DNA of 64,000 bases from Candidatus Multivoradales bacterium (GTDB lineage: Bacteria > Acidobacteriota > Thermoanaerobaculia > Multivoradales > J023), in NCBI GenBank assembly GCA_965248925.1, contig CBDFLE010000005.1, forward strand, positions 1,344,001-1,408,000. Direction: 5' to 3'. The notes under the pieces were generated by a model. The model saw only the letters and a list, made by a program, of their open reading frames with translations, did no database searches and had not been told where the DNA came from. How positions within the stretch are numbered: position 1 is the first letter of the stretch; each line of letters opens with the position of its first letter. This document shows positions 1,543 to 32,052 of this stretch, in pieces. Both the position numbers and the translations under genes were made by a program.

Positions 1543-1546
1543 CAGA

Positions 1547-2665: not shown

Positions 2666-3244
2666 TTCCCAGCAACCTTTCAGGCGGAGGTACCACCATC
2701 ACACCATGAGGCCGTTTGGCCTGGACCAATCTCACTCAGCCACCCTGGCTCAGAGCAGCACGTCCTGCCCCGATTGTCTCAGATACTCAGGGGTTCTGCT
2801 GGCCTGATTCTCAAGTCTGTGCCTTTTGGATCTCTCCTGAATCTGCCTGGACCCTAGCAGCTCGAAGGCAGAGACAATGTCCATAGGGGAAATCTGCCCA
2901 AGGCTTACCCCATGTGGGCGACTATATCGCCTAGGCGAGTGCAAGAGGGCACCACAGGACAGTAGCCAGGAACCGAATCCACGGTTAACACCAGGGTAGG
3001 CACGCGACTAGGATTGCGCAGCCAGTATCGCCGAACAAAGACGCCAAAGTCATTTCTTGATCGAATGAACATCTGCGCCCACTCGCTCCTGCTCTACCGG
3101 TGTTTCGCACCTCCACAGCACATGAACCCTAGGAAACGCGTTCGCGGCCCACAAATCCCTCCCCGCCATCCGCGCCGCCCGGCTGCCGGTGGCGACGGCG
3201 CTGCGGGAGCTTTGAGGAAAGCAACTGGCTGGGCGGGCCAGCGC

Positions 3245-5949
3245 TCAGCTGGCCCGCAGGGCCTCGACGGTGTCGGTGCTTGCCGCCTTTAAGGCAGGTC
3301 CCAAACCAGCCAGGGCGGCGACTCCCAGCAGCAGAACCGCCATGGCGAGGAAGATCATCGGGTCGGTTGGCTCGACACCATAGAGCAACGACTCGACCGA
3401 TCGCGACACCACCAAGGCACCCACGCTGCCGAGGGCCAGACCGCAGCCGGCCAAGAGCAGGGTCCTGCCCACGATGCGTCGCAGAACTCCCGCCGCCGAC
3501 TCTCCCAATGCCATGCGGATGCCAATCTCGGGCAAGCGCTCGTTGACCGAATAGGAGAGCACGCCGTAGATCCCCAAAGCAGCCAGCAGCAGAGCGGTAG
3601 CCGCAAAGGCAATAAGCAATTGCAGGGTGAAGCGGCGCGGTGACATCGAACGCTCAACCACCCCGTCGAGGCTCTGGTATTCGCCGGTCGGCAAGGTCGG
3701 GTCTAGCCGGCTGATCGCCGCCGCAACGCTGGGCACCAGAGCAGTGGCCGCCAAACGCGATCGCACCACCATGTCAAGGGTCTGAAAATCACCATTCTGA
3801 GTGACCGGGAGATACATCTCCGAACCCGCACCCAACTCTAGAGACCGATGCCGCACATCGGCCACCAGCCCCACCACCCGATGCTCCGCGCCGTTGATCA
3901 CCATGATCTGGTCGAGGGCGCGCTGGCCGCCAAAGACCCGCTTGGCGCCAGTCTGATTGAGCATCACGACCCGCTCTTGGTCGCCATCGTCGTGGGCACT
4001 GAAGTAGCGGCCCGCCAGCAGCGGAATCTGCATCGATTGCAAATAGCGGCTATCGATCAAATGGGGGAAGACCACCGTCCACTCTTCACCATCCTGGTAC
4101 TCAACCCCCGGTGCCCGCACCGCCCAGGATCGATTGCGCCCCAAAGGCAGAGCATCCGTGAGGCCCACTGCCTCGACCCCAGGAATCGCTGTCACCGCCG
4201 TCAGCGCACGGTCATAGAAGGCGTTGACCTCCGCCAAGCTGTCGAGATTCTGCGGGGTGTTGATCTGCCAAGCATAGGCCCCAGCGGGCTGAAAACCGAG
4301 ATCGACATCGAGCACCCGCTGGAAACTCTTCAACAACAAGCCGCCGAAGACCAGCAAGACGCAGGCCAGGGCGACCTCGGCAATGACCAGACCCTCGCGC
4401 CAACGGGTACTGCGCCGAGTGGCACTCAATCCCCTGCCCGTGCCTTTGAAGGCAGCTGCCTCACTGCCGTTGGAAACCTGCAGGGCGGCACCAGACCCGC
4501 CGCCAAACCGACGACGAAAGTCAGCGCAGTGGTGAAGAGCAAGGCACCGCCGTCGACCGAGACCGAGCGCAAGAGTGGAATGCTCAGCGCGTTGTCGGAG
4601 GCCGCGAATTCGGTGATCGAAACCGCCAGCAGAAGACCGACCCCAGCACCCGCGGTCGCCAATAGCGAACTCTCGATCAACAGCTGACGCAGCAGCCGCC
4701 AGCGGGAGGCACCCAGAGCACTGCGCACCGCCATCTCGCGACTCCGCTTGGTGCTACTGGCCAACAGCAGGTTAGAGAGATTGACACAAACGATAAGCAT
4801 CACCGCTCCAGCCGCCGCCGCCAGCAGCAACATGGCGGAACGGAAGGGGCCAGCGATCTGCCCCTTGAGAGAACTCACCTTGGCTCCTAAACCCCAACGC
4901 TCTGGATCGTCCTTTTTCAAGGCCGCGAGCACCGCGTCGAGTTCGGCCTGGGCGCTGGCGACGGTGGCGCCGGGAGCCAACCGGCCGATCATCGATAGGG
5001 TATTACCCCAGCGGTCGGTCTGATCGCTGATCGGAAAGACGTGCAAGAAATCTACCCTCGTGCTGGGAGTGAAGATGGAGGCAAAGTCGAAAGATGGAGG
5101 CAGCACACCGACCACCTCGAGCGGGCCATTGCTGAAGGAGATCGTGCTACCGACCACCGCCGGATCGGCGGCGAATCGTCGCTGCCACAAGGCGTGGGAC
5201 AAAATCACCACCGGCGGGCCGTTGTCAGCCCCCTCTTCCAAGACGAAGGCGCGGCCATGGAGCGGCTGCACACCCAGCACCTGGAGGAAATCTTGGGCCA
5301 CCGCTGCGCCGACCAGCCTCTCGGGCTCGCCTTCCCCCACCAGATTGTAGCTGCGGTGCTCGAAGAAGGCGTTGTAGCCGGTGATTGCGGTGAAAGACTG
5401 GGTGCGATCACGGAAGTCGCGCAAGTTGCTGGTGCGCGAAGTAACTGCCGACATGCCGCCCACGCCATCGTTGGCAATCCACACCAGCCGCTCAGCTTCA
5501 GTGAGCGGTAACTGGCGCAGCATCAGAGGGCTCAAGACACTAAACACCGCGGTACAGGCGCCGATCCCCAAGCCGACGATCGGCACCGCGAAGAGAAACA
5601 AGCGCGGATCCTTGCGCACCGCGCGCAGGGCATATTTCGCATCCGAAATCCAAGCCGAAGGTCGCAATAAGTCGCTCACGCTCTCTCCTTTGATTTCCGC
5701 CACCACCAGCGAGCTGAGGGGCTGCCGGCGCTGCCGGCGATCACTCAATCCCAAACTGCAAGCCAACACCAATGCCTGGCGCCAGTACCAGAAGTAAGCC
5801 GTCAATGCTCCCCGCCGCCGTGCTAGCCGGCCACAGTCCTCGCTGAGATCACCGAGGATCGAGCGGGTAATATCGCTGGCGCCAAGGCAGCGCAGCAGCA
5901 GCCACTCTGCCCCCCAGGGGGGTCGCGGGATCTGCTGTAGGCTGCTCAC
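3245..5949 (-). pseudogene. ADOP-family (MacB/FtsX duplicated) ABC permease split by a 1-nt frameshift at about 4487
   Basis: ORFs 4426-5949 and 3245-4429 carry the N- and C-halves (LLIxCxNLSNLLLA...REMAVRSALGA; LVIAEVALA...EIGIRMALG). Adding one G in GTG CCG CCC TGC gives a continuous VPALQVSNGSEAAAFKGTGRGLSATRR. Confidence 0.8.
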
Positions 5950-6272
5950 CGTGGGTCCATCATCGGCCCGAGCGCCGCGAAGAAACGCAGCAGAGTAGTG
6001 CGCGATGCCCGTGCCGCGCTGAGCCCTTCGGCGGAGACCCGCAGTCGGCGCATCGGGTGACCACCGCGTTCAGGAACTCCGCTAGGCTCGATCTCCCAGC
6101 TGATCAGTCTCTTGGCTTCGAGCCGGGCCAGGGTGCGGTAGAGCGCCCCGCGAGTTACCTTGCGGCCAGCGTTCTGCTCGAGGTCCCAGCGCACCCGATT
6201 GGCATAGGGCTCCTCTGCTTGGCGCAGGATCGCCAACAACACCAACAGCTCAAACTCACCCATCTTTGCCAT
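5946..6272 (-). CDS. PadR-family transcriptional regulator (acidobacterial ADOP-associated type)
   Basis: MGEFELLVLLAIL...GALYRTLARLEAKRLI...ERGGHPMR; overlaps the permease start (GTGA). Confidence 0.88.
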   Translation of the reverse strand: MAKMGEFELLVLLAILRQAEEPYANRVRWDLEQNAGRKVTRGALYRTLARLEAKRLISWEIEPSGVPERGGHPMRRLRVSAEGLSAARASRTTLLRFFAALGPMMDPR

Positions 6273-6330
6273 GCGTTTCCTACCCTGATTTTTCAACTCT
6301 CACTCTAATTCTTCAACTCTCATGCGAAGC

Positions 6331-6374
6331 ATACATTGTATACCTCGAAGCCTCAGACAAGTTACAACTGGTCT
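6331..6374. promoter_or_regulatory. Candidate PadR operator palindromes upstream of padR
   Basis: ATACA-T-TGTAT (6331-6341) and imperfect AGACaAGTTacAACTgGTCT (6355-6374) in the AT-rich intergenic gap. Confidence 0.35.
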
Positions 6375-6390
6375 AGGCAACCGTCTCGCT

Positions 6391-8463
6391 CTATGAGCTC
6401 GGCGCCTGCTGGCTGCCGAATCGGCCTGCCGCGAAAGTCTGCAGCAAGGTCGGCAACACCAGCAGGGACAGCACCAGTCCGGCGCCGACTCCCAGACCAA
6501 GAACTTGGGCAAAAGAAGCCAAACCCCGATGACTGGTCAAGGCCAGAGTGACGAAAGCGGCCAGGGTGGTGAGGGAGGTCAGGACGATGCTTCGACCGGT
6601 GCCTATCAGGGTGCTGTGGAGGTCACCTCGCTCCGAGCGGTAGCGGTGAACCAGGTGAATACCGTCGTCGACAGCGATCCCCAGCACCACCGGCAGAGCC
6701 ATGATATCGAGAGGATTGAAGGACAGCCCAAAGAGCTTCATCAGGCCGATCAGCGCGCTCACCGTCAGCCCGGTCGGCATCACCGCTAGCAAAGTCCAGA
6801 GCGGGTCGCGGAATACCGAGAAGACCCAGATCAGAAGCAGAGGAGCGCCCGCCGCAGCCGTCACCCACAAAGCTCGTTTTGATCGCTCGACCATGAATTG
6901 GCCGAGGAAGGGCATGCCGGTGGCTTGGCTGTCGATTGCCAGCATATGATCGATGAAAGTCTGCTGCTCCAGCGGGTCCCAGATGTCAGCCTGAGGATAA
7001 GCGTAGACCGCCAGTTGGCCGGCGGTGGATTCAAAGGCCCGCAGCAGGTCCGGCGGCAGCTCTGCCCGCACTCCCGGCAGCACTTCAAAATCGAGCATCG
7101 AACGCACTGTGCCCACGGTCTCGTCATCACTCAGTCGCCAGACCAGATCTTGTAGCTCTTGGCGTGAGCCAACGGTGAAAGCAGCCAACTCGGGTGACCA
7201 GCTCGACCGCCGCACCATCTCGCGCTCCAGGCGCACAGTCTCTGAGTCTACCGGCTGTAGATTGAGGTAGTCGGTGTCAAAAGACGGCAGCCCACCGAGC
7301 AGTCCCGTCAGGGCAGCTAGCACCAACAGCCAGGCCAGCGGCCGGCTTTGCAACGCCACCAAGATTCGGCCGAGGCGCCGCCCGCCACCAGCCCATGGCC
7401 GCAGCTGTCGCCCGCCAGTCCAGCTAAGACTTAGCAAGGCCGGCAGCACTGTCACCATCGACAACAGACAGATCACCACACCGGTGCCGGCGATCGCTCC
7501 CAATTCAGCGAAGCCACGAAAACCGGAGAGCTGCATTGCCCACAGAACCGAGGCGGTGGTCAGCGCGCTGCCGGCCAGGCTCGGCGCCAGCTCGCCCACC
7601 GCTCGTGGCACCGCCCGCGCCAGCACCAGGCCCTCGCCCAGCAGCTCCTCAGTCCGAGCAACAATGTGAATGCCAGAGTCTATGCCGAGGCCAAGAAGGA
7701 TCGAAGCAAAGAACGCCGACAGCAGAGTGAGGTGGCCAGGGTAGATGGCGGCGAATCCCACCGTCACAACAACCCCGAAAGCCAAGGCCAGGGTCGCGGC
7801 CAAGGGGCGACGGATATCACCAAAGGCAGTGGCGAAGAGCACCAGCACCAAGATCAACGACAACGCCGACAACCGGCCGATGTCACGCTGCACCAAGTTG
7901 CGATCGTCGAGAGCGAAACGCGGCATGCCGGTGGTTCCGGCTCTAACCTGGGTAGCCGCTAATTCCGCCTGCAAACGCTCCTCCACCCCAGCGACGAAGG
8001 GCTCCAGGGTCTCGACCCGAGAGTAAGCATCCTCCGGCTGGACGAAGAGAAATAGCAGTCCGCCATCCTCAGAACTCAGGTAAGGATCGACACCTGTCAC
8101 TTCCACCACCGCCGGATCGAGCGGCAGCCTGGCGAACACACTGCGCACGCCGGGGAGCTGTCGCAGAGCAACCTCCAGCCGGTCGGCGGCACTTCGCAAA
8201 CGGCTTTGATCAGCCCCTTCGAGCACTACCACCAAGCTGTTGGGAGTGCCGAACCGAGCAGCGAAGTCTTGAAACCGCTGCACTGGTGGCAGTTTGGTAT
8301 CGATCAAATCGAGGTTCGAAGTGCGCAGACTCAGCCGGGTCACGGCCAGTCCCAGGGATCCGCCCGCCAACAGCAAAGCCACCAGCAAGACGGCGCCAGG
8401 TTGCCGCACCGAGACTCGGGCGGCGACGGCGAGCATCCCAGCTGCGCGGCCCAGCCAGTTCAT
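6391..8463 (-). CDS. MMPL/RND-family lipid exporter (HpnN-like)
   Basis: Two TM bundles with ILLGLGIDSGIH and VVLGIAVDDGIH; TSLTT motif; ATG 8463 overlaps the upstream stop. Confidence 0.85.
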   Translation of the reverse strand: MNWLGRAAGMLAVAARVSVRQPGAVLLVALLLAGGSLGLAVTRLSLRTSNLDLIDTKLPPVQRFQDFAARFGTPNSLVVVLEGADQSRLRSAADRLEVALRQLPGVRSVFARLPLDPAVVEVTGVDPYLSSEDGGLLFLFVQPEDAYSRVETLEPFVAGVEERLQAELAATQVRAGTTGMPRFALDDRNLVQRDIGRLSALSLILVLVLFATAFGDIRRPLAATLALAFGVVVTVGFAAIYPGHLTLLSAFFASILLGLGIDSGIHIVARTEELLGEGLVLARAVPRAVGELAPSLAGSALTTASVLWAMQLSGFRGFAELGAIAGTGVVICLLSMVTVLPALLSLSWTGGRQLRPWAGGGRRLGRILVALQSRPLAWLLVLAALTGLLGGLPSFDTDYLNLQPVDSETVRLEREMVRRSSWSPELAAFTVGSRQELQDLVWRLSDDETVGTVRSMLDFEVLPGVRAELPPDLLRAFESTAGQLAVYAYPQADIWDPLEQQTFIDHMLAIDSQATGMPFLGQFMVERSKRALWVTAAAGAPLLLIWVFSVFRDPLWTLLAVMPTGLTVSALIGLMKLFGLSFNPLDIMALPVVLGIAVDDGIHLVHRYRSERGDLHSTLIGTGRSIVLTSLTTLAAFVTLALTSHRGLASFAQVLGLGVGAGLVLSLLVLPTLLQTFAAGRFGSQQAPSS

Positions 8464-9404
8464 CGTGGCGGCCCGCCGCCGACAGATCCGGCAGCCAACT
8501 GCGGCATCATCCAACGCAGGCCGGCAATCTCAGCAGCGCGGGCAAAGCGCGGCAGGGCCGAGGAGGGCCGATCGAGCGATAGAGTGAAGGTTCCGAAATG
8601 ACAAGGCACGACTTGCTCGACACCAAGAATCTTGGCCACTCTCACCGCCTCCTCCGGATTCAGATGGAATTTGGCCAGCGGAAACCGCGGCGCGTAGGCG
8701 CCGATCGGCAGCACCGCGACGCGCGGCTGATAGCGCTCAGCGATCACCGCAAAGTGCTCGCCGAAACCGCTGTCACCAGCGAAGTAGATGGCATCTTCCG
8801 GTGATCGGATGATGTAACCCAAGGCCAGCTGGCGGCTCGCCAAGGGGTGATAACGATTGCCATTGTGGGCCGCCTCGACGGCTATCACTTCCAGCTCTCC
8901 CAGCCGCAAACTCGAACCAGGCTCGAGGCTATCGATGCGGATAGCGGGATCGAAAACGCCCTCGAGATACGCGGCGGCCCCAGCGGGTACCAGCATCCGC
9001 CCAAGGCGAGGCACCGCCGCCAGGGTCGGCAGATCGAGATGGTCGTAGTGAGCATGACTAATCAACACCGCATCAAGCGGCCCTAGCTCTCCAGCCGCTA
9101 ATGGTGGAGCCATCAGCCGGCGACTCAGAGTGCAATGCCGGCTGAGGTTTGGATCGACCAGGATTCGCTGCCCCAACCACTCGACCAAGAAACCCGAATG
9201 TCCCAGCCAGTGCAACCGCGGCACCGGCGAATCACCCCGCCAGAGCACCGTTTCCCGAGGTCGCGCCGCCCTTGGGATCTCTTCCCAGCCGGTGGCGCCC
9301 TGCCAGTGTTGGAGAGGTGTCAACCAACCAAGCCAGCCTGCCGAGGCGAGAACTGCTGCCATTAAGATCGCGGCACCGATCAGGCGTCTTCGCTTACCCC
9401 TCAT
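8460..9404 (-). CDS. MBL-fold metallo-hydrolase (NAPE-PLD/RomA-like), N-terminal membrane anchor
   Basis: HWLGHSGF, LISHAHYDHLD, YFAGDSG, LPIGAYAP, PCHFGTF. Confidence 0.88.
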   Translation of the reverse strand: MRGKRRRLIGAAILMAAVLASAGWLGWLTPLQHWQGATGWEEIPRAARPRETVLWRGDSPVPRLHWLGHSGFLVEWLGQRILVDPNLSRHCTLSRRLMAPPLAAGELGPLDAVLISHAHYDHLDLPTLAAVPRLGRMLVPAGAAAYLEGVFDPAIRIDSLEPGSSLRLGELEVIAVEAAHNGNRYHPLASRQLALGYIIRSPEDAIYFAGDSGFGEHFAVIAERYQPRVAVLPIGAYAPRFPLAKFHLNPEEAVRVAKILGVEQVVPCHFGTFTLSLDRPSSALPRFARAAEIAGLRWMMPQLAAGSVGGGPPR

Positions 9405-11457
9405 CCCAGCCTCCTGAAGGTTCAGCGCTGGCCGGACCGCCAAGTTCACGACTCTTGCTGAGCTGCTGAACCCAGGCCACCAGATCCGCCACCTCGCGGT
9501 CCGGCAAAGTCTCATGACCAGGCATCGAAGTGCCCAGCAGGCCGAATTTCACCAGCCGCGCCAAAGCCAGATCCGCAGAATCCGCGCCGGGCCCCCAAGA
9601 CACTGCCCAGAACTCCCCCTTGGTGAGATCCATGGCCGGACGAAAGACCGCCGCCGCCAGCGGTCCATGCCCCCGCCCATCGCTGCCGTGGCAGGCCGCG
9701 CAATAGCTCGCGAACAGCACCGCGCCGCGCTCGCCGCTACCGCCCCTGAAGCTCTCGGCCATCGGATGGGCTGCCACCTGCGCCGCCCAAATGATGAGCG
9801 GTGCCGCCCGCAAGCTCGTCAAATAGGCCACCAAATCACTACCCCGCCGGCCATCGCCAACGAATAGATGCCGGTAGGACGGCATTCTCGACGCTGGCTC
9901 CAGGGTTCGCGGATCGAGCAGATGGAGACGGTGCCAAGTGGCCGAGCGGCGCAAGCCTGCGTTGCTGAGATCGGGACCTTGGCGGCGATTGCCATACAAC
10001 GGGGGACGCTCATTGGCTCCGACTCGGTCCTCCCCGTTCGACCCCGGCAAGGGTCCCCACAACTCAGTGTCCCTGAGCAAGGGGCGGACGTATTGCGAGT
10101 GACAGCCGATGCACCCTTCGGCGATGTAGACCTGGCGACCGCCCGCCACCGCCGCGTCCAACCGCGCTTCAGCTGTCGGGTTTGGCTCCGACCCGCCACC
10201 GCCAAACATCCCCAGGGCGAGGAGGCCGCCAGTGAAAGTCAGGCCATGGCGGCGTAGCAGCCCGGCGAGCCGGCCACTGCCCAGCGCCCAAGCCAGCAGC
10301 AGCAACACAGCAGCGATCAGCACAAAACTCCGCGGAATCTGCTCGCGACCTTGTGCCATGGCAATTCCCAAGCCCGAACCCAACCAGCCCGCGACACCGA
10401 ACAACAACGCTGCGCGAAATCTCCCTGGCACCCGCCCGGGTGCTTCGCCGCCGGCCGAGGGGTAGACTACTAGCGCCACCGAGTAGAACGAGATTCCCAT
10501 CGCATACAACGAGCCCGATATCGCCGCCGCGACACCTCCGAGACTCAGCAAGCGAAAAGCTACCGCAAAGAGAGTGACGGCGCTGAGCAACAAGCCGTGG
10601 AAATTGCCGCGATCGATCCGCCAGCCAGCGATCAGCGCCGCTGCCAAATGGGTCCAACCGATAACTATCTTACCTTGCCCCGCCCAAGTCGCCCCTCGCA
10701 GCACCGGACTTTGCTGGATGATGGCAAATGCCGCTGAGTCGAGCCAAATCAGCGCCAAGAAGGCCAGCACCACAGCGGCAAAACCCAAGCCAGCGAAATC
10801 TCTAGTCATCAGCCCTGCTGGACGGCTTAGCGGCTCGCCGACCGGTGGCTGCGCGGTCTCTCCCCGTTCGAGAAAGGGAGTCGCCGCCAGGCCCGCCAGG
10901 CAAGCCAGCGACGCCGCTACACTCTGCTCCACCGGCGAACCTGCGAAGAGAAGCGGCACATTGCTCAGCAAATATGCCAGGCCGGTTCCCAGGCCAACTC
11001 CCAACCCCAGCCTGCGACCGCCGAGCAGAAATCGCAGACGATAAGCCAGCGAGACCGTGGCCAGTGCCGTCGAGGCACCGATCAGTACAGCGATGGCGAT
11101 CAAGGCGCTCACCGCCGTACATGTCGGTGCCAACAGCGCCGCCAGCGCGCCGCCGGCCAACCCAGCCCGCAGCAGACGCAGGGTCGGCACCTTGCCCAAG
11201 GCCCAGGCGGCACCGAGACTGGTCAACAAGCCCGCAAAGCCCATCGCCCCCATCGCTCGCTGAAGCCAGAGGACCGAGTTCAAGCGCAGTTCGAGCACCT
11301 GGAGGAAACCAAACTGAGCATAGAGCAAGAAGAAGATGTAGACCGCGGCGATCACCACCACGCCGGCAACCCAAGGCGCCAGGCCAACACTCGCAGGTGC
11401 TTCGAGGACTTTGCCCCTCGCCCCGTTGTCGCGGTCAGAATCTAGCGCAGGACTCAT
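9394..11457 (-). CDS. Fusion: MFS-like multi-TM domain + CcoO (cbb3 subunit II)-like cytochrome c + second c-type cytochrome
   Basis: About 12-13 hydrophobic segments, then GRQVYIAEGCIGCHSQYVRP...GNRRQGPDLS...WHRLHLLDPR...SRMPSY (CcoO pattern), then YCAACHG...TSMPG. Confidence 0.85.
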   Translation of the reverse strand: MSPALDSDRDNGARGKVLEAPASVGLAPWVAGVVVIAAVYIFFLLYAQFGFLQVLELRLNSVLWLQRAMGAMGFAGLLTSLGAAWALGKVPTLRLLRAGLAGGALAALLAPTCTAVSALIAIAVLIGASTALATVSLAYRLRFLLGGRRLGLGVGLGTGLAYLLSNVPLLFAGSPVEQSVAASLACLAGLAATPFLERGETAQPPVGEPLSRPAGLMTRDFAGLGFAAVVLAFLALIWLDSAAFAIIQQSPVLRGATWAGQGKIVIGWTHLAAALIAGWRIDRGNFHGLLLSAVTLFAVAFRLLSLGGVAAAISGSLYAMGISFYSVALVVYPSAGGEAPGRVPGRFRAALLFGVAGWLGSGLGIAMAQGREQIPRSFVLIAAVLLLLAWALGSGRLAGLLRRHGLTFTGGLLALGMFGGGGSEPNPTAEARLDAAVAGGRQVYIAEGCIGCHSQYVRPLLRDTELWGPLPGSNGEDRVGANERPPLYGNRRQGPDLSNAGLRRSATWHRLHLLDPRTLEPASRMPSYRHLFVGDGRRGSDLVAYLTSLRAAPLIIWAAQVAAHPMAESFRGGSGERGAVLFASYCAACHGSDGRGHGPLAAAVFRPAMDLTKGEFWAVSWGPGADSADLALARLVKFGLLGTSMPGHETLPDREVADLVAWVQQLSKSRELGGPASAEPSGGWDEG

Positions 11458-11460
11458 GCT

Positions 11461-11868
11461 CTACCGCTGCCGCCACAACTGCCGCAGCCACCCCAGCTGG
11501 GCGATCGCCAGCAGCCAATCCGTGGCCATCACGGTGATCCATGGCAGCGATAGGCCACCGCTCAGCAGGCTGCCGCCGATGAACAGCGCCACCGCCGTAC
11601 GCAGCAAAGCGGTGATCTCGAAAATTGTCCGCAAACGCCCCAGGCGATGACCGCGGTCGAGCAGAAAGGGCAACAGGTAGGCAGCGCCCACCGCAGCGAC
11701 AAACACCCCAACAAAGCGCAGGAAGACGGTGTCAGATGGCGGATCCGAGACACCGAACAACCCCACTGTCAACCTTGGAGCAACGATCAGGGCCAGGCCG
11801 GTACAGCCGTCCAGTAGGCCGACCGCCAAGCTGAAAGTCTCCACTTGTCGGGTGAGACTCAATTTCAT
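11461..11868 (-). CDS. Small four-TM membrane protein
   Basis: 135 aa from ATG 11868 (ATGA overlap with the upstream stop); hydrophobic helices. Confidence 0.7.
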   Translation of the reverse strand: MKLSLTRQVETFSLAVGLLDGCTGLALIVAPRLTVGLFGVSDPPSDTVFLRFVGVFVAAVGAAYLLPFLLDRGHRLGRLRTIFEITALLRTAVALFIGGSLLSGGLSLPWITVMATDWLLAIAQLGWLRQLWRQR

Positions 11869-13190
11869 GCCACCACCTCCTCCGCTGGCGAGCGGGACCA
11901 CGCCGCCACCAGCCATTCAGCGGATGCGGCCAACATCGCCACCCCGCCCCCCAGGCGCAGCCCGTAGAGCAGATCGACAGCTCCCCGCCCGCCGAACAAG
12001 AAGTTGGGCCGGACCGCTTCGAGCGCTCCGAGGATGGTCAAAGAGAGCACCAATAGCAGAGTTCCTCCATGCCACAGCACAAAGGCCCGGCGATGCTGAA
12101 AGAGGCCCGCCAGGGGGGTCTCCCGGTGCATTCCTTCGAGCAGAAGGACAACAAAGCAAGTCAGCATCCCAGCCATCGCCAGATGGGCGTGAGCTACCAG
12201 AGCATTGGTGAATTTCAACCCTTCGAGCAGGCCGGGCAGAAAGGCGACCACCCCACTGACAATCAAGAAACCGCCCCAACCAGCAAAGGCAGAAAGCCAC
12301 CACCTGCCCCCGAGTAACGCCGGAAAGCAGCGCAGATGGCGGCGCAAAAGCGGCCACCACACCACCAGGCTGCACAGGCTAGCCACCTGTAGCCAATCAC
12401 GGTGGCTGTGATCGGCGTGATCGAGCAGCGCGAACCAAACCAGGTGCAGGCCCAACACCACGCCAATCCGCCGTGCACGCCGACCACCCTCGAGAGGCTT
12501 CAAACCAACCAGAAATGGATAAGCGAAGATAATCCCCACCAATGCCAACGAGCTGCCCAACAAGCTGGTTCCCGTGGGCCCGCCACTGATCGGATTGATC
12601 AGCGGGTAGACCGCCGGGCTGGCAACCCAGAACATCACTAGCGGCACCACTGACAGGGCGAGCAGCAGCAGCCCCTTGGCCAGCTTGCCAAGCGGGGACG
12701 ACCAGCCGGTTGCAGAACCTCCCCGGTTGGCTTTCAGCTGAGCGGCGAAACCCACCCACAGAGTCAAAGCCAGGCAGCCCAGAGCCACTGCCAGCAGCCC
12801 TCGCGCGGGGCCGCGCCATTCGAGGAAAATTTTCCCGCTGGACTGTCCAGCAAGCCAGGAAACGGCACCGAAGAGCAGGCTTCCGGACCACACCGAGACG
12901 GCCAGCAATGCCCCCCTGGAGCCGTCCCCGGGCGGCCGAAACAAGCGCAGCAGCACCCCCACCATCGGCAAGCTGACCCAGCCGTAGAGCTGCAAGTTGA
13001 AATGCACTGGCAACCATCGACCGTAAGTCAAAGCACCGGTCAAGCGCCCGAGTTGGGGAAACAGCAACAAGAGGGCGAGCCACACTCCGACCGCGTTGCC
13101 AACCACCAGCCAGGTCAGACTGTGCACCGTGACCTGCGAGGCGAGCGGCGAGTTACTCCCTCGGCGCGCCGCCGGGACGGCCGTACTCAT
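11865..13190 (-). CDS. Divergent heme-copper oxidase subunit I (CcoN-like) with altered CuB site
   Basis: TYGRWLPVHFNLQLYGW ~ CcoN helix II FGRLRPxHTN; SSGKIFLEW ~ SKEYAELEW; FTNALVAHAHLAMAG ~ helix X HxH. About 12 TMs. Confidence 0.75.
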   Translation of the reverse strand: MSTAVPAARRGSNSPLASQVTVHSLTWLVVGNAVGVWLALLLLFPQLGRLTGALTYGRWLPVHFNLQLYGWVSLPMVGVLLRLFRPPGDGSRGALLAVSVWSGSLLFGAVSWLAGQSSGKIFLEWRGPARGLLAVALGCLALTLWVGFAAQLKANRGGSATGWSSPLGKLAKGLLLLALSVVPLVMFWVASPAVYPLINPISGGPTGTSLLGSSLALVGIIFAYPFLVGLKPLEGGRRARRIGVVLGLHLVWFALLDHADHSHRDWLQVASLCSLVVWWPLLRRHLRCFPALLGGRWWLSAFAGWGGFLIVSGVVAFLPGLLEGLKFTNALVAHAHLAMAGMLTCFVVLLLEGMHRETPLAGLFQHRRAFVLWHGGTLLLVLSLTILGALEAVRPNFLFGGRGAVDLLYGLRLGGGVAMLAASAEWLVAAWSRSPAEEVVA

Positions 13191-13206
13191 CCCTTCACAC
13201 CTTCCT

Positions 13207-14229
13207 CTAAGCCGCCGCCAGGCGCTCTTCCATTTCGCGACACTCGTTCTCCAGCACCTCTTGCAAGCGCTCCAGGGGCCGCCACAGGATGGCATCAGCC
13301 TGATTACTCAGGCCAGCAATGATCTCCCTGCCTTCGTCGAGCAACCGGTTGACCTGCGCAGCCGCCTGCCGGACCCCCAACGCCTGAGCCAGATTGGGTC
13401 GCCCGAGCAGCCGATCGCGACCGGTTGACTTGCCAGCTTCTTGGCCCGACATCATCTGGTCCTTGAGGTCATCGAGAGCCTGATAGCCCAGGCCCCAGGT
13501 CAGCGCCAAACCCTCCAAGCGAGCTAACTCGCCAGCATCGCAGCCAGCGACCAAGGCCGGCAGCACCAGGGTCAGACGCACCAGGGTCACCGTCTTGCCC
13601 TCCGCCACCTGGCGGGCTTCCACCGCACCGCCGCGAAAAAAAAGGTCTTTGGACTGACCATTCAAGATACCCGCCACACCGAGGCAATCATCCACCAGGC
13701 GCGCCGCCGTTTGTTGACACTCAGCCGGCAACGGACCCAGCACCCGCCACAGCAGGTCGTAAGCGCGGGTGATCAAGGCCAACGAGCCGAGGATCGCTGC
13801 CCCTTCGCCATACACCCGGTGCGGGCAAGGCCGGCCGCGCCGCTCGACCGCATCGTCCATCGCCGGTAGATCGTCGAGCAGCAATGATGCGGTATGAAAG
13901 TACTCGACCGCAATGGCCAGCTCGAGAGCCGGCTGAGCGGCTTCGCCGTGGGCCCGCATCAAGCCGTAAATCACCTGCGCCCGCAGCAAGCCACCCGGAT
14001 GGTCGAGGGTATCGACCAAAACCCCGCGCAAATGCTCTTCGGTACCTGCGCCAACCTGCAGCAGATCGCGAAAGCCCGCCTCGACAAAGCGCCGGGGCAG
14101 GGGATCGAGGACGTTCCGCGGTGACTTCTCCGCCTTCGGAAAGCGGCTCGGAGCCGACTTTGCACCGAGTCCGGGCAGCGGCCGGGGCCGGGGCCAGCGA
14201 TCCAAGTCGCGTACTTCGCTGAGCGACAT
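13207..14229 (-). CDS. Trans-polyprenyl diphosphate synthase
   Basis: FARM EYFHTASLLLDDLPAMDDAVERRG, GQSKDL, KT, SARM YQALDDLKD, GKSTGRD; SD AGGAGG before ATG 14229. Confidence 0.9.
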   Translation of the reverse strand: MSLSEVRDLDRWPRPRPLPGLGAKSAPSRFPKAEKSPRNVLDPLPRRFVEAGFRDLLQVGAGTEEHLRGVLVDTLDHPGGLLRAQVIYGLMRAHGEAAQPALELAIAVEYFHTASLLLDDLPAMDDAVERRGRPCPHRVYGEGAAILGSLALITRAYDLLWRVLGPLPAECQQTAARLVDDCLGVAGILNGQSKDLFFRGGAVEARQVAEGKTVTLVRLTLVLPALVAGCDAGELARLEGLALTWGLGYQALDDLKDQMMSGQEAGKSTGRDRLLGRPNLAQALGVRQAAAQVNRLLDEGREIIAGLSNQADAILWRPLERLQEVLENECREMEERLAAA

Positions 14230-14240
14230 CCTCTGGCCTC

Positions 14241-14807
14241 CTAGTGCAACGGGCCACGAGCTCTTACGCTGACTTCGACAACTTTGCCCACTCGCAGAAA
14301 GAGCAGGCTCGGATTTTTCATTCCCCACTCCACATAGGGAACAGAGAAAGTAGTCTCGGCATCGAAGGTCTCTCCATCGAGGGTGAACTTGGCTGCCATC
14401 GACAAAGGGTGCTCATCGCCATGGATAGAAATGGTGCCAAAAATCTCTACTTCGCCGCTACCATCCGCCGGCAGCGTACCCTCGAAACGGCTCGGCTCGA
14501 AGACGATCCAGGGAAACTTCTCGGTTTCGAAAACCTTTTTGTGCATCGTCGCATCGCGTTTCTCGTTACCGGTTCTCGCCGATTTCAGAGCGAGCTTCAA
14601 CATGCCGCTGGCCTTGCTGCTCTGCGAATCCAGTCGCAGCTCGCCTTCGCTGAGTTGCAGCTGCCCTTCGACATCGTGGCCGGTCGCCGGCACATGAAAA
14701 GAAACCTCGGTCGCATCCAAGTCGAAGGTGATTATGCGTTCGACAGCAAACATCGAAGGAGCCAGGCAGAGCAGTCCAAAGTAACAGGTTAAGAGGATTC
14801 GGATCAT
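14241..14807 (-). CDS. YceI-family polyisoprenoid-binding periplasmic protein
   Basis: Signal peptide; TGNEKRDATM...FETEKFPWIVF...GTISIHG. Confidence 0.88.
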   Translation of the reverse strand: MIRILLTCYFGLLCLAPSMFAVERIITFDLDATEVSFHVPATGHDVEGQLQLSEGELRLDSQSSKASGMLKLALKSARTGNEKRDATMHKKVFETEKFPWIVFEPSRFEGTLPADGSGEVEIFGTISIHGDEHPLSMAAKFTLDGETFDAETTFSVPYVEWGMKNPSLLFLRVGKVVEVSVRARGPLH

Positions 14808-16264
14808 TGTCGATTCTCCATGCTAGATGATTCGAGAACAGCGCCAGATAGGTTTTCTACCTCGGCACCGAAAGACTTTAGGATCGAGTGCAACTTTAAT
14901 TCCGTTTCGCGGTACTCACGCCGCGGGTCAGAACCACTGACGATGCCGGCGCCGGCAAACGCCCGCACTTCGCGTCCGTCGATCAGAGCACTGCGCAGGG
15001 CGACGGCGAATTCACCGTCGCCAGCGCCATCGAACCAGCCGATCGGCGCCGCATACCATCCCCGTGGGGCGGCCTCGTGATCGCGGATCCACTGCCGCGC
15101 GTACTCGGTTGGCACGCCAGCAACCGCCGGCGTCGGGTGCAGAGCAGCCACCAACCGCAGCACATGGGTCGGAGTGCTCAGCGAGCCGGCGACCGGCGTC
15201 ACCAAGTGCTGCAAGCCGCGCAGCACCTTTACCCCTGGCTCGGCAGCGATCATCAAACGCTCACAGAAAGGTGCCAGCTGCCGCTCGATGGCTTGGACCA
15301 CCAACCGGTGCTCGTGGCGCTCCTTGGCGCAGGCAGTGAGCCGGCGTGCGGCGGCGGCACCCAGCACCGCCGAACCGGCTAGCGCTTCGCTGACCACTCG
15401 CCGACCACGCTTGGCCACCAAGCGCTCGGGAGTGGCGCCGAGAAAACAAGCACCGCCGTGGCGACAAGCAAAGCGAAGAGTACCGGCGGCCGGCAACCGG
15501 CGGAGCACAGCGGTGGTATCGGGCGGTTGCTGGAAGGTCACTCGGGCACCGTGGGCAGCGACCACCTTCTCCACCTGCGAACTCGCTATCGCCTGCCCGA
15601 TAGCCGCCACCGCCGACTCGAAGCGAGCCCTCGGAGGCGGCTCCAGGAGTGGTGTTGCGACCCCTGGAGCCACCACCCTTGGCTCGGGCGAGTCCAGCAC
15701 TTCGAGCAATTCCAAGGTGGTGTCGACAAGCTGGCGATAACTTCCACTTGCCAGCTCCGCGCTGCGCACCGCGAGGGTCAAACTGGCCCCCTGCGCGGTG
15801 GCGCGGTACAGCAATCGGGGCAAGACAAAGAGGGCATCTCCGAATGGCCGCCAAGGCGCCAGATCCGCCGCTCCGGGGTCAAAAGAAAAGCCGCCGAACA
15901 AGCGCGGCTGATGGCCTTGCGCCGCTGCCGAGCAGTCCTCATGGCGATCACTGTGGAATTCGGAGATCAGGACCTCCGCCTGCCGCTGAATGCTCTCGAA
16001 GCGATCCTCGCCGACAGCACTCAGTCGGTGGGCCGAGCCAAGACCGGCCACAGCCACACCATCACCAGCATTCCAAAAAACACTAGCGGAGCGCGGAAAC
16101 AAGTCTAGCTAGCGTTCCGCCGCGGTCACCGGCGCCGGTATCGTCATCAGAGTGGTTCCACGACGGCCCACCGCCCGCTGCAGGCAGCGCAGCAAAAAAC
16201 GCCGAACCTCGGGATCTTGCTGGATCGCTGCTGGGGCCGCGGACAGGCTCGTCGCTGAGGGCAT
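14804..16264 (-). CDS. menF: Isochorismate synthase (MenF-like, MST family) with an in-frame TAG at 16109-16111
   Basis: KVV, GATPERL, EALAGS, KERHEH, LHPTPAV, RGWY, FAGAGIV..S...E..ETELK. ATG 16264 with AAGGAG SD is in frame with 14804-16102 across GAA CGC TAG CTA GAC TTG. Confidence 0.8.
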
Positions 16265-16545
16265 CGGACTCCTTCGGAGCTGTACTCGGTGCGGCAACAA
16301 TGCCGACCGGATATCGCTAAGAGGGGGCGAGCAGGAAGATCCTTCGCGGTTTCTGAAGCGAAATCGAGATCAGAGAAAGGGAAAAGTTAGAAAGGCCCGC
16401 ACGGCAAGCGAGCGGCACCACCGTCGCTGCACCACCGTCGTTCAGTCCTACACCTCCGAACCTCAATCAACCAGCGAAATTCCAGGCCAGTTTCCGAGCC
16501 CCCAGTGGTGGGAAAGAGCGCCGCCGACGGAGCGCTAGCGCCACC

Positions 16546-19500
16546 TCAGTACCGCTTCCACAGTTTGATCCCAATCCCCTCGCGGGTCAGTCGGAAGAGC
16601 TTGCCGAGGGGCGCGCAGTACGGACTGTGGTGAGCTGGTTGATCATTGATGACGTCCACCGCCAGACGGCTGCGGGGCGAGGACTCACGGGTCAAGAGCA
16701 CTTTCAGCACGGCCCCGTACTCCGCCAGTCGGGGGTGCTCCGGTTCGATGTTGAATTGCAACTCAGCGGCATGCCGCTTCGACACCAACACCAACCGACT
16801 GCCATGGAAAACCAGATGGGTCGATGGTAAACGAGCTGGCAAATTGCCTTTGAGTGCTTCCAGGTCAACGCCGCACAACGACGCCGGATCATTGGCCGCC
16901 AGCCAGTAGATAACATCTTCGGGAAGGCCCTGGCGCAGCTCGCACAGTGCCCCTGGGGAGGCAAACTGCAACCCCGGTATGCCGTCAAAGAACTGCCCCG
17001 CCAACACTTCGCCGGACAACTCCATCAACCGCAGAGCGCGGAACACCCGTGACCAGCGCAACGCAGGTAGCTCACGAGCTAGCAGCTCGCGAAACACCAC
17101 CCCGTAGCGCTCGACCAGCCAGCGGGCACGATCCTTGGCCAGTTCTTCGCGCTCCAAGGCATCGAGGGGTTGGCTAGCGTTGGCTTCGAGCGCTCGCCAG
17201 CTATCGAGCCGCGGCCCGGTTGGGCGCCAACGATCAAGACCCCGGCGCCGCCCGCCGCGGCGAGCAGCGGCACGAGGCTCTTGCGCCGGCAGTTCGAAGC
17301 GCTGAGCGATTCCCTGGCGAACCGCCGCGAAGCTGCCACTGGTGACTCGGCCGCTCCAGGCCAAGCGCCACAACTCGGCAGCAGCCGCGGCGAGTTCGAG
17401 ACCAGCGCCGGCAGCAATCTCTGCCAACTCCAACCAACCACCACCCGGTGGCAACAGCTGAGCGCGGGCGGCGCTCTCGGCCACCGCCGACTCACCCTCT
17501 GCCGGTGGCTGGTGCAGGAGTTCCAAGTCGGAGGCGAGAACGAAGCTCAGCCGCCCCTTGCCCACCCCGGTCCACAGCAGCTGAGTCTCCCGCAGCAGGC
17601 TGTCGAGCCAAGCTTGATAGTAGGGTTCTAGCCGCGCCGGCAAGAAGTTGGATTCCCAGCTCTCGACCGGCGCCGGGTAGCCGAACAAGCGTTCCAAACT
17701 GTGCTGTAGGTCCTCCATCGCTGAGCCAGGCTCGGTGAGTCCTTGATGCCGAGCTAGCCACAGCGGCAGCTGCTCCAGACCCAGGGGCTCGAAGGCCGGC
17801 CGCGCCGCCAGCCGCAGCCAGCGAAGAAGAATCTCTAGGTTGTCGGCATCGCAGATCTCTACTGCCTCGACCCCCTGTTGCAACAAATCGACCACCAGCC
17901 GCTGGCCCTCGGCCAGTTCGGTGAGAACCCGCTCCAAAACGCTATCGTCAAAACCCCAGACCTGCCCGATTAGCCCCTGTGCCAGCGGCCCGTGAAAACG
18001 CAGCCACTCGCTCAGCACCAGCGCTAGCTCGGCTGCCGCTTCGGCGGCCGAGCGCCGCCCGATCAGCCGGTCAAGACGGCGCCGCGCTGGCTTCGGCGCG
18101 GCCTGCCTCGGATCGTCCACCCCTACCAGCTCGATCTGCTCGACCGTCAGCCCCAAGGCGTCGAGCAAATAGGGCAAGCGGTCGGTAGACACCACCACGG
18201 CTTCTTTCGCCCCCGGCAAGCACACTCCGAGAACTCGCTCGCCAAGCTCCTCGATCAGACCCGCCGGCTGCTCACCGTGGTCACTTTCCACCGCGGCGAG
18301 CAGCTCGCGCCACTCTTCTCGCGACAGCAGCAGGCGCTCATCGATCCAGTCGGCAAGGTCGTCGCCGGGACGGGGCGCATATCCCGCCAAGGTGCGCTGC
18401 ACCTTGCGCCGGAAGCGCTCCACCAGAGGGGCGGGCAACCGCGGCCGCAGCTGGGCCGAGAACACCAGTTCGCGCAATAGATCAGGGCGCACCCCGGTCC
18501 TCAGCTCTCCCCTCGGCGAGTCGTCCTCGTACATCAGGAAATTAGTCTCTTGCCATAACAAGTCAGCGGCAAAAGGCGATGGCACGGTGGTGCGCACATC
18601 GGCGATTTCTACTTCGCCGGCCGCCACCTCGGTGAGTCGTAGCTTCAAGGTTTCCAAGTCGAATTCGTCTTGCAGGCAGCTACGCCAAGTCTCGACCAGG
18701 ATGGGAAAGTCGCCGTAGCAGGCCACCCCATCGAGCAACTTCTTGGCCCGCTGACGAATCACCCACAGAGGCAGGCGCTGGCGGAAATTTTGCCGCGGCA
18801 GCAGCAGGGCAGTGGAAGCAGCAGCCCGGAAGCGGGCGCCAAAGAAGCCGGTGGCTTCGAGCCGCTGGCGTAGCAAACGCTCGATGCTCTCTGGCGGTAC
18901 CAGGGCGAATAGCTCCTCGGCACTGACCTGCCCCGGCAGGATCAGTAGCACGTTGTCGTCGCTGTGGTAGACCTCCAGATGATCGTCGTGGGCCTGGTCC
19001 CAGGCCGCGGCCAGGGCGGTGGCGAAGGGCCGGTTGACGGTGCCGCCCCAAAAGGTGTGGAGAATTACCCGCCGACGCCCGCCTTGAGCACCGTCCCAGC
19101 AATGCTCGACCAACAGCCGGCGACGATGCGGCAGTTTGCCGGTGGCCGCCTGCTGCTGCTGCAGAAACTCCACCAGCCGGTCGGCGGCGGCGGCCTCCAG
19201 ACAATGCCGGTCGATCAGCCGCTGGCGAAACTCGGGCCGGCCGAGGTGGTCATCGGCCTCTTGTAGCAGCCGCGCCACCTTCTCAGAGAGAAAAGCGCCA
19301 CGATCCTGAGCATCGGCCCGCCAAAAGGGGGCCAACGCCGCGCCACCATGCCCGGGCACCACCAGCACGTCGTTGTGGGTGATCTTGCGGATCCTCCACG
19401 CTTGGGTGCCGAGCACAAAGCTGTCGCCCACCGAACGCTCCCAAACAAACTCCTCATCCAGCTCGCCGAGCTTGGCCATCGACCGCTCTACTCGCAAGGT

Positions 19501-21045: not shown

Positions 21046-21046
21046 T

Positions 21047-21838
21047 TCAGTGAACCCAGGGATCGCCGCCGGCCCGGCCGTTCCCCGGTCGACCGCCCTG
21101 ACCCTTACCGCCCCCGTCGACCACCCGGAAATTGCGCTTCTTGCGCGAGCTCGCCAACCGCGCTTCAAGGATCAACTTCTCGATCCGCAAGCGCAGCTCG
21201 CGCAGAATCTTGCGCGGTCCGCGACCGCTGAGCATCGAGTAGGTCACCCCCACCGCGGTGCAGATACCGAGAAAGCCCGGCAGATCCTTCGAGCTCAGAT
21301 AGCCCATGAAGCCGAACAAGATCTCCAACCACAGGAACCAGCGTGCCTGCACCGGCAGGACAAAGAAGAGCAAAATGCTGGCATTGGCGAAGAGCACCGA
21401 GAAGGCGGCGATGACGACGGTGATCAAGATCCGCTGACCTTGCATCAGCGAGAACACCGGCACTGACGGATCACTGCCGAAGAGCAGCGTGCCGAGCAAC
21501 GCCGTGCCCACCGCCACTAGCGAAGCGCAGCCCACCCCCCAGCCGAGCAAGGTCCAGAACTGGCGCCGGCCTAAGTAGCGATAGACATCGCGCGAGAACC
21601 AGAACAAGATCAGCAGCTCGAGCAAAAACCAGATACTCGGCGGGCCATAGCCGATGAAGGGATAGGTCGCCAGCTGCCAGAGAAAGAAGCTCTCCCAGAC
21701 CAGCGGCGTCAGCCGTAGCAGCGCCGGCAGCAGGCGAATACCCTCGAAGAACTGCAACGAGAAAGTGACGAAGAGCACCGCCAGCAGGATCATCAGATCC
21801 CGCGGCGGCGGCTGGTGTCCGCCCATGCCAAAGCTCAT
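21047..21838 (-). CDS. Rhomboid-like/DUF1751-like membrane protein (probably non-catalytic)
   Basis: LWQLATYPF (WR/WQ loop), multiple TMs, C-terminal FRVVDGG...WVH. No GxSG motif seen. Confidence 0.6.
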   Translation of the reverse strand: MSFGMGGHQPPPRDLMILLAVLFVTFSLQFFEGIRLLPALLRLTPLVWESFFLWQLATYPFIGYGPPSIWFLLELLILFWFSRDVYRYLGRRQFWTLLGWGVGCASLVAVGTALLGTLLFGSDPSVPVFSLMQGQRILITVVIAAFSVLFANASILLFFVLPVQARWFLWLEILFGFMGYLSSKDLPGFLGICTAVGVTYSMLSGRGPRKILRELRLRIEKLILEARLASSRKKRNFRVVDGGGKGQGGRPGNGRAGGDPWVH

Positions 21839-32046: not shown

Positions 32047-32052
32047 AACGCT

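Follow-up and report, generated by a model that had tools for sequence, protein, structure and literature searches.

Among described systems, the cbb3 oxidase stands closest to the heme proteins considered here, being a member of the heme-copper oxidase (HCO) superfamily in which subunit I (CcoN) is accompanied by a CcoO/FixO protein with heme c and then by a CcoP-type cytochrome c. Within CcoN, a histidine of transmembrane helix (TM) 2 and the H-x-H pair of TM10 ligate the low-spin heme b (TM2 and TM10) and the high-spin heme b3 (TM10). The nitric oxide reductases (NORs) of the same superfamily keep three histidines (plus a glutamate) at FeB. On the side of lipid traffic, the HpnN, BstA and LolCDE families hand lipidic cargo to periplasmic carriers, and in the extracellular electron-transfer locus of Listeria there is a dedicated quinone branch, DmkA/DmkB. 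As described in PMC9113575, the YceI-family lipocalin BcnA is genetically linked to a di-heme cytochrome b561, LcoA, and the two are proposed to re-reduce lipocalin-bound quinone and to quench lipid peroxyl radicals. This report deals with a cluster of eight genes at positions 6391-16264 (minus strand) of a 64,000 nt stretch of DNA, hereafter the window, from the acidobacterial Candidatus Multivoradales bacterium of the class Thermoanaerobaculia (assembly GCA_965248925.1, contig CBDFLE010000005.1, positions 1,344,001-1,408,000). The cluster joins a divergent, CcoN-like protein to a prenyl diphosphate synthase (PPS), a YceI-family lipocalin and a lipid exporter, and the CcoN-like protein is a member of a previously undescribed HCO-derived family that resides within a conserved lipid supply and export cluster in at least four phyla. 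In the reading favoured here, to which a probability of roughly 0.35 is given, an isoprenoid or prenylquinone would be exported to the periplasmic YceI protein and redox-coupled to a CuB-less heme b/c complex for redox protection of the cell envelope.

The CcoN-like gene (11865-13193, minus) encodes a 12-TM protein that, in the copy of the window, has no Pfam match, and models of the HCO C family were not reached, PF00115 giving nothing for this copy and TIGR00780 giving no match in its own genome. Some of its homologues carry a precomputed PF00115 match, and many relatives are publicly labelled 'cytochrome c oxidase cbb3-type subunit 1'. When an AlphaFold model of the protein (pLDDT 81.7, pTM 0.86) was searched with Foldseek, the best match was the CcoN chain of cbb3 oxidase (8smr_E, 3mk7; E 8e-8 to ~1e-7, TM-score 0.67-0.68), and a total of 31 HCO chains were matched at E<=1e-3, with cNOR NorB (4xyd, 3o0r), qNOR, and the ba3 and aa3 oxidases coming after CcoN. 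A profile built from 24 members of the family also matches the cbb3 CcoN chains in the PDB at 4e-7, while hhalign against nine canonical CcoN sequences of the source phylum gives a probability of 96.9 and an E-value of 1.4e-10 over 383 columns. The predicted structure is that of a 12-TM HCO subunit I, and the name CcoN-like, which a preliminary description of this DNA had used without Pfam support, is confirmed by the fold match. The family is compact and clearly bounded, since a profile search of 1.84 billion cluster representatives returned 658 matches at E<=1e-3, 313 at <=1e-10 and 201 at <=1e-30. In a quick maximum-likelihood tree of 79 family rows and five canonical CcoN sequences (with SH-aLRT supports, and with two loci whose matches covered fewer than 330 query residues left out), its members form one group, and the branch between this group and canonical CcoN is very long.

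What distinguishes the family from canonical CcoN is the pattern of residues kept and lost. H63, H334 and H336 are invariant in 24 sequences and align with the canonical invariant H59, H344 and H346, i.e., the TM2 histidine and the TM10 H-x-H pair; because the heme ligands are kept, the heme module presumably still transfers electrons. The CuB site is another matter, for in the same low-identity alignment the canonical H206 of TM6 falls on Ser213, within an invariant Gly/Ser-rich stretch, and the H256/H257 pair of TM7 falls on the variable residue 261 and Ser262. The canonical invariant tyrosine that forms the cross-link, Y250, is replaced by a leucine, and TM6-TM7 contain no invariant tyrosine. 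With heme ligands kept and both CuB ligands and tyrosine gone, the 'degenerate' cbb3-like oxidase of the preliminary description is an apt term, and to judge from these residues the heme module should be unable to work as a canonical O2 reductase. The remodelled CuB region does contain the near-invariant residues H249, D260 and H263, the last two within a G-D-x-S-H motif, which the alignment is too weak to place. Two near-invariant histidines, H23 in TM1 and H249 in TM7, have no canonical invariant counterpart, and an extra cofactor or metal site is possible there.

The partners of the CcoN-like protein bear on how electrons might reach it. One gene (9394-11457, minus) encodes a 12-TM MFS domain that is followed by one further TM helix, a CcoO/FixO mono-heme domain and a second cytochrome c domain. 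The CcoO/FixO assignment comes from PF02433 (2e-25; 89.9 bits versus 29.6, covering profile positions 52-142 of 219), with PF00034 (2e-12) and PF13442 also matched, and both CxxCH motifs, that of the CcoO/FixO domain being formed by C449, C452 and H453, are conserved without exception in the 26 sequences compared. Although the Pfam MFS model has no match in this fusion, the first ~400 residues of its predicted structure (pLDDT 82.3) have the 12-TM MFS fold, with OxlT as the best Foldseek match at 3.5e-6 and with G6PT, GLUT3, VMAT2 (target-normalised TM-score 0.53-0.68 for these four) and NarK matched as well, and thus the MFS label of the preliminary description also stands on fold. The thirteenth helix, coming after the MFS part, would place the heme domains in the periplasm. 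Between these two genes lies that of a 4-TM protein (TM4; 11461-11868, minus), which is weakly DUF4345-like; no Pfam match exists for this copy, and DUF4345 is matched in six of 24 members, at best at 3e-5. Its invariant residues are D21, T24, G25, P32, R91, D118 and Q125, the Asp, Arg and Gln of which are embedded in the membrane. Gene fusions, here denoted by the P-numbers of protein cluster representatives, suggest that the proteins of the heme module form a single complex: the CcoN-like protein is fused to TM4 in P0156, P0172, P0180 and P0223, and in P0204 (1130 residues) the CcoN-like part is joined to the whole MFS-CcoO-cytochrome c part. A further candidate, P0261, was set aside as fusion evidence, for it looks like a chimera with internal deletions.

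Compared with a cbb3 oxidase, then, the cluster shares the subunit I fold, the heme histidines of TM2 and TM10, and the succession of a CcoO/FixO heme c and a CcoP-type cytochrome c, but differs in its CuB site, in the fusion of CcoO behind a 12-TM MFS domain, in the extra DUF4345-like subunit and in its genetic context, which consists of YceI, PPS and exporter genes rather than ccoQP and ccoGHIS. Among the Pfam matches of the scanned open reading frames (ORFs) of the window there was none for ccoQ or for ccoG/H/I/S, no search having been aimed at them. The source genome (8.0 Mb in six contigs, 97 % complete) has a single copy of the CcoN-like family, with no match to canonical ccoN and no second FixO, and two canonical COX1 loci are located elsewhere in it. 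One of these two (G000:C6:2425235-2426272) has an internal TAG that splits the match in two.

Alternatively, the heme module might be a new, C-family-derived reductase of NO, O2, H2O2 or N2O, with H249, D260 and H263 as its metal site, the MFS domain moving substrate or product, and the lipid genes either supplying a cofactor (farnesylated heme, bound quinone) or being co-regulated stress genes. The strict retention of the heme ligands and of two c-heme motifs, which leaves a path for electrons from cytochrome c to heme b3 intact, favours such a reductase, as does the near-invariant G-D-x-S-H motif at the position of the CuB His-His pair; NarK-type transporters are among the fold matches of the MFS part, and in locus L025, the only Opitutaceae locus scanned for this, the adjacent two-component pair is nearest to heavy-metal-type (CztRS/CopRS) and PmrA-type models, at scores below their cut-offs. 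However, the TM6 histidine, a metal ligand in O2 and NO reductases alike, is replaced by invariant Gly-Ser, nir, nos and nar genes were not seen beside the scanned loci, and the co-occurrence of YceI, PPS and a lipid-type exporter (69-77 of 80 loci), including an exporter that is swapped and yet kept, is left unexplained, such that this alternative appears possible if doubtful. In the available parts of PMC11214002, several tyrosine-less HCO families with altered sites are proposed or shown to be NO reductases, and the NORs treated there (cNOR, qNOR, eNOR/sNOR/gNOR/nNOR and 'N2Ored') resemble the CcoN-like family in having lost the catalytic tyrosine and in having a changed second metal site. 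They differ in that the TM6 histidine is gone in the CcoN-like protein, and those same parts of the paper describe neither an MFS fusion nor lipid genes for these families. Identity with 'N2Ored' was considered and rejected, since, as far as those parts go, the examples of that family are from Bacteroidota (Flavobacterium, Cloacibacterium) and the paper places the family near cNOR. The per-genome table of PMC11214002 gives 'C' counts for Opitutaceae and Thermoanaerobaculia genomes, and these might include the CcoN-like family.

The arrangement recurs well beyond the source genome. A word-indexed search yielded 298 CcoN-like relatives at E<=1e-3 among 8000 candidates scored, and a scan of one genome per species gave 223 pattern matches, 159 of which encode a CcoN-like relative; the best 80 of those 159 loci form the set on which all neighbourhood counts are based and whose members are denoted by L-numbers. 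For each, the six-frame ORFs within 8 kb of the CcoN-like gene were searched with the proteins of the window and with verrucomicrobial representatives, the all-against-all BLAST being restricted to ORFs of >=150 aa, such that shorter conserved neighbours may be missed. The 80 loci come from Verrucomicrobiota (Opitutaceae, Akkermansiaceae and Verrucomicrobiaceae) and Acidobacteriota (Thermoanaerobaculia, Holophagales and others), plus one metagenome-assembled genome (MAG) labelled Myxococcota and one Bdellovibrionota MAG. TM4 is present in 75 loci, MFS-CcoO in 70 and PPS in 70, always on the strand of the CcoN-like gene, and YceI is present in 69 (68 on the same strand). An FtsX permease occurs in 54 loci and an ABC ATPase in 55, again always co-directional, an RND exporter in 22 (21 on the same strand), an OmpR-type regulator in 35 (22) and a histidine kinase in 31 (22), the last two being relatives of the two-component pair that adjoins L025. 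Several further gene misses in this census are also at contig ends. The genes thus form a recurrent, cross-phylum unit, and the linkage to prenyl-synthase and exporter genes, whose absence would have counted against the preliminary description, is found in 70 and 77 of the 80 loci, respectively. The family is rare in the source phylum, being found in two of 301 sampled genomes, the source included (one genome flagged as unpublished, G024, is counted as a non-match).

Within the window, the ORF listing and family scans place all eight genes on the minus strand, and the junctions between them, in order of transcription and with the start codons suggested by the translations, are -4, +11, +13, -4, +3, -14 and -4 nt. 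Overlaps and gaps are thus at most 14 nt, in agreement with the one-strand array with junctions of no more than 16 nt that had been reported initially. Recurrence in 80 loci puts the gene arrangement far beyond chance. That the genes are unrelated and merely adjacent, forming no system, is accordingly most improbable, as the core order is kept in 69-77 of 80 loci from four phyla, several independent gene fusions have occurred, and translational overlaps of 4-14 nt exist at four junctions of the window; the fusions and the recurrence contradict it, and what speaks for it is a pattern scan of the region in which no sigma-70-type promoter was found and in which terminator-like sites were not in excess (16 versus 10.9 +/- 3.7 in shuffles), the latter being uninformative. 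An Rfam scan of 5800-16700 gave no match.

Export is a lipid-side function that is conserved in spite of a change of protein. It is present in 77 of the 80 loci, as an HpnN-like RND protein in 22 or a LolCDE-like ABC system in 55, and never as both. In the three loci without one (L002, L006 and L016), the contig ends 58, 2162 and 2369 bases, respectively, downstream of the CcoN-like gene, on the side where other loci have their RND gene. In the window, the last gene of the cluster (6391-8463, minus) encodes an RND protein of the HpnN/BstA-like (HAE3/MMPL) kind, which passes both the MMPL (PF03176, 8e-28) and the sterol-sensing (PF12349) domain models. It is nearest to HpnN (TIGR03480, 1.5e-89) and BstA (8e-75), in both cases below the cut-off, and cannot be classed as HpnN proper (301 bits versus 751.85 for TIGR03480, 134.7 versus 1100 for NF052374). 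The ABC genes that replace it in Verrucomicrobiota match LolCE and LolD best, also below family cut-offs. The kind of exporter follows the tree, in that the ABC type occupies two clades of Verrucomicrobiota and all others have the RND type, and the ABC type requires two label changes on the tree, compared with a shuffled mean of 22, which points to a non-orthologous swap in which the role in export was kept. The MMPL exporter of the preliminary description is therefore correct for this cluster and for 22 of the 80 loci and does not extend to the 55 with the ABC type. The combination of an inner-membrane extractor of the RND or MacB type with a periplasmic carrier of hydrophobic cargo is reminiscent of HpnN, BstABC and LolCDE-LolA, from which the cluster differs in that its exporter scores are below cut-offs and its carrier is YceI rather than BstB or LolA; genes for hopanoid or sterol synthesis are absent from the cluster.

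The putative carrier (14241-14807, minus) belongs to the YceI family (PF04264, 2e-20; 73.9 bits versus a cut-off of 23.7) and has a hydrophobic N-terminus like that of a signal peptide. The PPS (13207-14229, minus) is probably of the short-chain trans type, FPP/GGPP-synthase-like, with both Asp-rich motifs and a PF00348 match of 7e-30 (104.6 bits versus a cut-off of 27). Its best NCBIfam models, FPPsyn (121.7 bits versus 275) and CrtE (101.8 versus 460), are both below cut-off, and its best relatives in the PDB are FPP/GGPP synthases at 6e-27, versus 4e-14 for an octaprenyl synthase; by a rule of thumb, the small residue found five positions ahead of the first of these motifs might permit a C20 product. 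The pairing of an extractor with a secreted lipocalin, the dedicated PPS and the exporter swap together suggest that a hydrophobic isoprenoid leaves the inner membrane for a periplasmic carrier, and it is for this lipid export that we infer most strongly; that it is coupled to the heme module is proposed with less force. A predicted complex of mature YceI with the CcoO-cytochrome c part scored 0.00, which gives no answer and speaks neither for nor against binding.

The remaining lipid-side protein is a metallo-beta-lactamase (MBL) hydrolase (8460-9407, minus), which has a PF12706 match of 1e-34 (120.4 bits), the H-x-H-x-D-H metal motif and an N-terminal hydrophobic anchor, by which it would be held in the membrane. 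Its nearest solved relative is human NAPE-PLD (4qn9) at 1e-24, versus 2e-11 for UPF0173 hydrolases, from which it is classed as a putative NAPE-PLD-like phosphodiesterase of the MBL fold, and the protein probably faces the periplasm. In L079, a single reading frame encodes MFS-CcoO-cytochrome c with the MBL domain behind its cytochrome c domain. It might also be supposed that the cluster makes an oxidised isoprenoid lipid of the outer membrane, with the MFS domain flipping a prenyl diphosphate, the MBL protein dephosphorylating it, a bilayer-accessible, CuB-less heme b3 oxidising or cleaving it, and the RND or ABC exporter and YceI exporting the product. This biosynthetic route uses the same parts as the favoured reading and gives a role to the MFS fusion; it would also suit a NAPE-PLD-like, periplasmic MBL protein, exporters of hopanoid, sterol or lipoprotein type, the PAP2 phosphatase genes found nearby in five Opitutaceae loci and the class I methyltransferase gene that recurs in eight Acidobacteriota loci. 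Heme enzymes that cleave polyisoprene exist in the form of the rubber oxygenases RoxA and Lcp. Yet, we know of no HCO family member that acts on a lipid and of no precedent for c-type cytochromes feeding a lipid oxygenase; six loci lack PPS and 42 of 80 lack a nearby MBL gene, and the route is considered unlikely.

The gene transcribed first encodes a paralogue of isochorismate synthase (ICS; 14804-16264, minus), with matches to PF00425 (2e-64) and TIGR00543 (302 bits versus a cut-off of 224.75). It is interrupted by an in-frame TAG at 16109-16111 (minus), which leaves an ORF of 14804-16102 from TTG and an N-terminal remnant at 16112-16264, and the start at 16264 that had been assigned earlier reads through this TAG at 16111-16109. 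Since the 51 codons upstream of the TAG can be aligned with the N-terminal ends of uninterrupted homologues from L004 and L002, the ICS is either N-terminally truncated, in which case translation might restart at TTG 16102, or a pseudogene of recent origin. The TAG is identical in contigs of four of four runs, all from one sample and study that may be the assembly's own source; among the runs listed for this DNA, these four, none is on record as RNA, which speaks neither for nor against transcription. A separate set of men genes is located ~140 kb away on the same contig and consists of menD, which exceeds its cut-off with 382 bits, and of genes for a chorismate-binding protein, a UbiA-family protein and another prenyl synthase, and the existence of this set makes the ICS and PPS of the cluster additional copies; in all, the genome has four chorismate-binding and six prenyl-synthase genes, and MqnA was not found in it. 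The cluster ICS was also considered as the housekeeping menF and rejected, because a second chorismate-binding gene (likely menF) lies directly beside menD, 67 nt from it. The menF-like link of the preliminary description has become a lineage-specific one, as ICS occurs in six of the 80 loci (always on the same strand), all in one clade of the quick tree, and a stop codon interrupts the copy here. PPS and ICS form single reading frames in L008, L020 and L079, and these fusions favour, for at least one clade, a prenylated, chorismate-derived product of the naphthoquinone type. The two functions that were originally suggested, i.e., that the cluster makes, oxidatively tailors and exports a prenylated chorismate-derived lipid or that it is a quinone-fed conduit, can be carried forward as conjectures.

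The second of these corresponds to an extracytoplasmic electron conduit, in which a dedicated, short-chain quinone pool would feed the heme b/c module and, through it, periplasmic or outer-membrane acceptors such as metals. The PPS (and sometimes ICS) paralogues beside housekeeping men genes, the PPS::ICS fusions and the two c-type hemes predicted to face the periplasm are in keeping with such a conduit, along with the metal-type sensor pair that adjoins L025 and a multicopper oxidase gene upstream of the cluster in L045. A conduit would not explain why a lipid should be exported rather than retained in the inner membrane, and multiheme cytochromes and outer-membrane porin-cytochrome genes were not seen in the scanned loci, making this explanation distinctly unlikely. 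The Listeria locus mentioned above offers a parallel in having a paralogous polyprenyl synthase within a specialised electron-transfer locus and apart from the housekeeping menaquinone genes, but the present cluster is without a prenyltransferase paralogue, flavin-transfer genes and NDH-2, and its hosts are of the Gram-negative type.

In the favoured reading, that of an exported isoprenoid coupled to a CuB-less heme complex, the cluster would constitute one envelope system with two coupled halves, a lipid supply and export line and a cbb3-derived redox module, and would operate as follows. The dedicated short-chain PPS, which in one clade adjoins or is fused to the extra ICS, would make an isoprenoid, most likely a prenylquinone tail. 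The inner-membrane extractor, HpnN-like RND here and LolCDE-like ABC in most Verrucomicrobiota, would then remove the product from the membrane and pass it to the secreted YceI lipocalin, and the membrane-anchored, NAPE-PLD-like hydrolase might, at the periplasmic face, trim the phosphate head group of a lipid. The redox module, made of the CcoN-like protein (which keeps hemes b and b3, has a remodelled CuB site and lacks the catalytic tyrosine), the DUF4345-like 4-TM protein and the MFS::CcoO::cytochrome c fusion, would shuttle electrons between the periplasmic c-type hemes and the membrane heme site. In this manner the exported or carrier-bound isoprenoid, quinone or lipid hydroperoxides would be kept reduced and the envelope protected, a substrate, a direction of electron flow and a physiological role that are all put forward here as proposals. 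The logic is likened to that of the BcnA/LcoA pair, which is the closest published model for linking the two halves (PMC9113575), since in both cases the gene of a secreted YceI lipocalin is linked to that of a di-heme b membrane protein. This likeness is confined to function, as the heme protein here has an HCO fold and c-type heme partners and is not a cytochrome b561, and the cluster adds a PPS, an exporter and a NAPE-PLD-like hydrolase.

A number of points weigh against this reading. The mapping of the CuB-site residues derives from profile alignment rather than coordinates, and at such low identity a shift of one to three residues, onto D260 or H263, is possible; the G-D-x-S-H motif and H249 could still bind metal, in which case the module may be a small-molecule reductase. 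On the lipid side, ICS is limited to six of the 80 loci and, in the window, is interrupted by its stop codon, the cluster has no aromatic prenyltransferase or other men/ubi gene, such that a quinone product would need the housekeeping enzymes, and six verrucomicrobial loci with full flanks (L019, L031, L033, L042, L053 and L071) are without a prenyl synthase. Finally, no more than 38 of 80 loci have an MBL gene at a distance of up to 8 kb, just 19 of them on the same strand, and the MFS domain is given no role in the model.

As a tentative variant, the CuB-less HCO scaffold may be a lipid-directed redox enzyme that reduces, oxidises or cleaves an isoprenoid, prenylquinone or lipid hydroperoxide in the membrane with electrons from periplasmic cytochrome c, and that is tied to the transport of this lipid to the outer membrane by the MFS fusion and by a dedicated set of synthase, carrier and exporter. 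If true, this would be the first member of the HCO superfamily whose substrate is a lipid instead of O2 or NO, and Verrucomicrobiota and Acidobacteriota would share a novel means of envelope redox protection or of lipid tailoring. Irrespective of the substrate, the reuse of an oxidase scaffold that lacks CuB is relevant to how respiratory enzymes gain new chemistry, and the strict linkage of YceI, PPS and a swappable exporter raises the question of what cargo YceI carries, and of the supply of isoprenoid redox lipids to, or their protection of, the periplasm and outer membrane. Because proteins labelled as cbb3 are without the residues for O2 reduction, surveys that use cbb3 markers may over-count micro-aerobic respiration among soil and freshwater Verrucomicrobiota and Acidobacteriota. 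Full-text literature searches, whose coverage ended at subscription journals, found no description of the family or the cluster, in line with the earlier remark that no described system has this layout.

Several observations concern the surroundings of the cluster in other genomes. In the six verrucomicrobial loci without PPS, tandem paralogous ORFs of ~200-270 aa, which have no Pfam match, take its place ~3-5 kb upstream of the CcoN-like gene, and relaxed-threshold Pfam gave no match for several recurrent neighbour ORFs, including those that replace PPS in Lacunisphaera-type loci. Sulfatase-family genes are nearby in five loci. In an Opitutus-labelled MAG, the 4-TM and MFS-CcoO genes occur once more, as an incomplete copy upstream of the complete cluster (L034:5052-6591), and in L045, an Akkermansiaceae MAG, the multicopper oxidase gene just upstream of the cluster is of the three-domain kind (L045:3438-5498).

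In the window, the RND gene is followed on the minus strand by genes for a PadR-like regulator (5946-6296) and for MacB/FtsX-type permeases (4426-5949 and 3245-4429), whose junctions overlap by 4 nt and among which no ABC ATPase gene was seen; PadR is within 8 kb of the CcoN-like gene in none of the 80 related loci. Upstream, an intergenic stretch of ~280-440 nt separates the cluster from a gene for a large, Lhr-type helicase (1540 aa; 16546-21168, minus). Farther away are an ORF of 1465 aa (23283-27680, minus), whose only recognised domains are LysM and a C-terminal nucleotidyltransferase, and an uptake operon of the siderophore/heme/B12 type (28924-33954, minus) that encodes a TonB-dependent receptor, a periplasmic binding protein, a FecCD permease and an ABC ATPase. 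At the other end, positions 1-3000 have a G+C content of 0.52-0.53, versus ~0.63 elsewhere in the window, and hold two ORFs without a Pfam match (511-1542 and 1547-2665); given this drop in G+C and these two ORFs, the segment may be foreign DNA.

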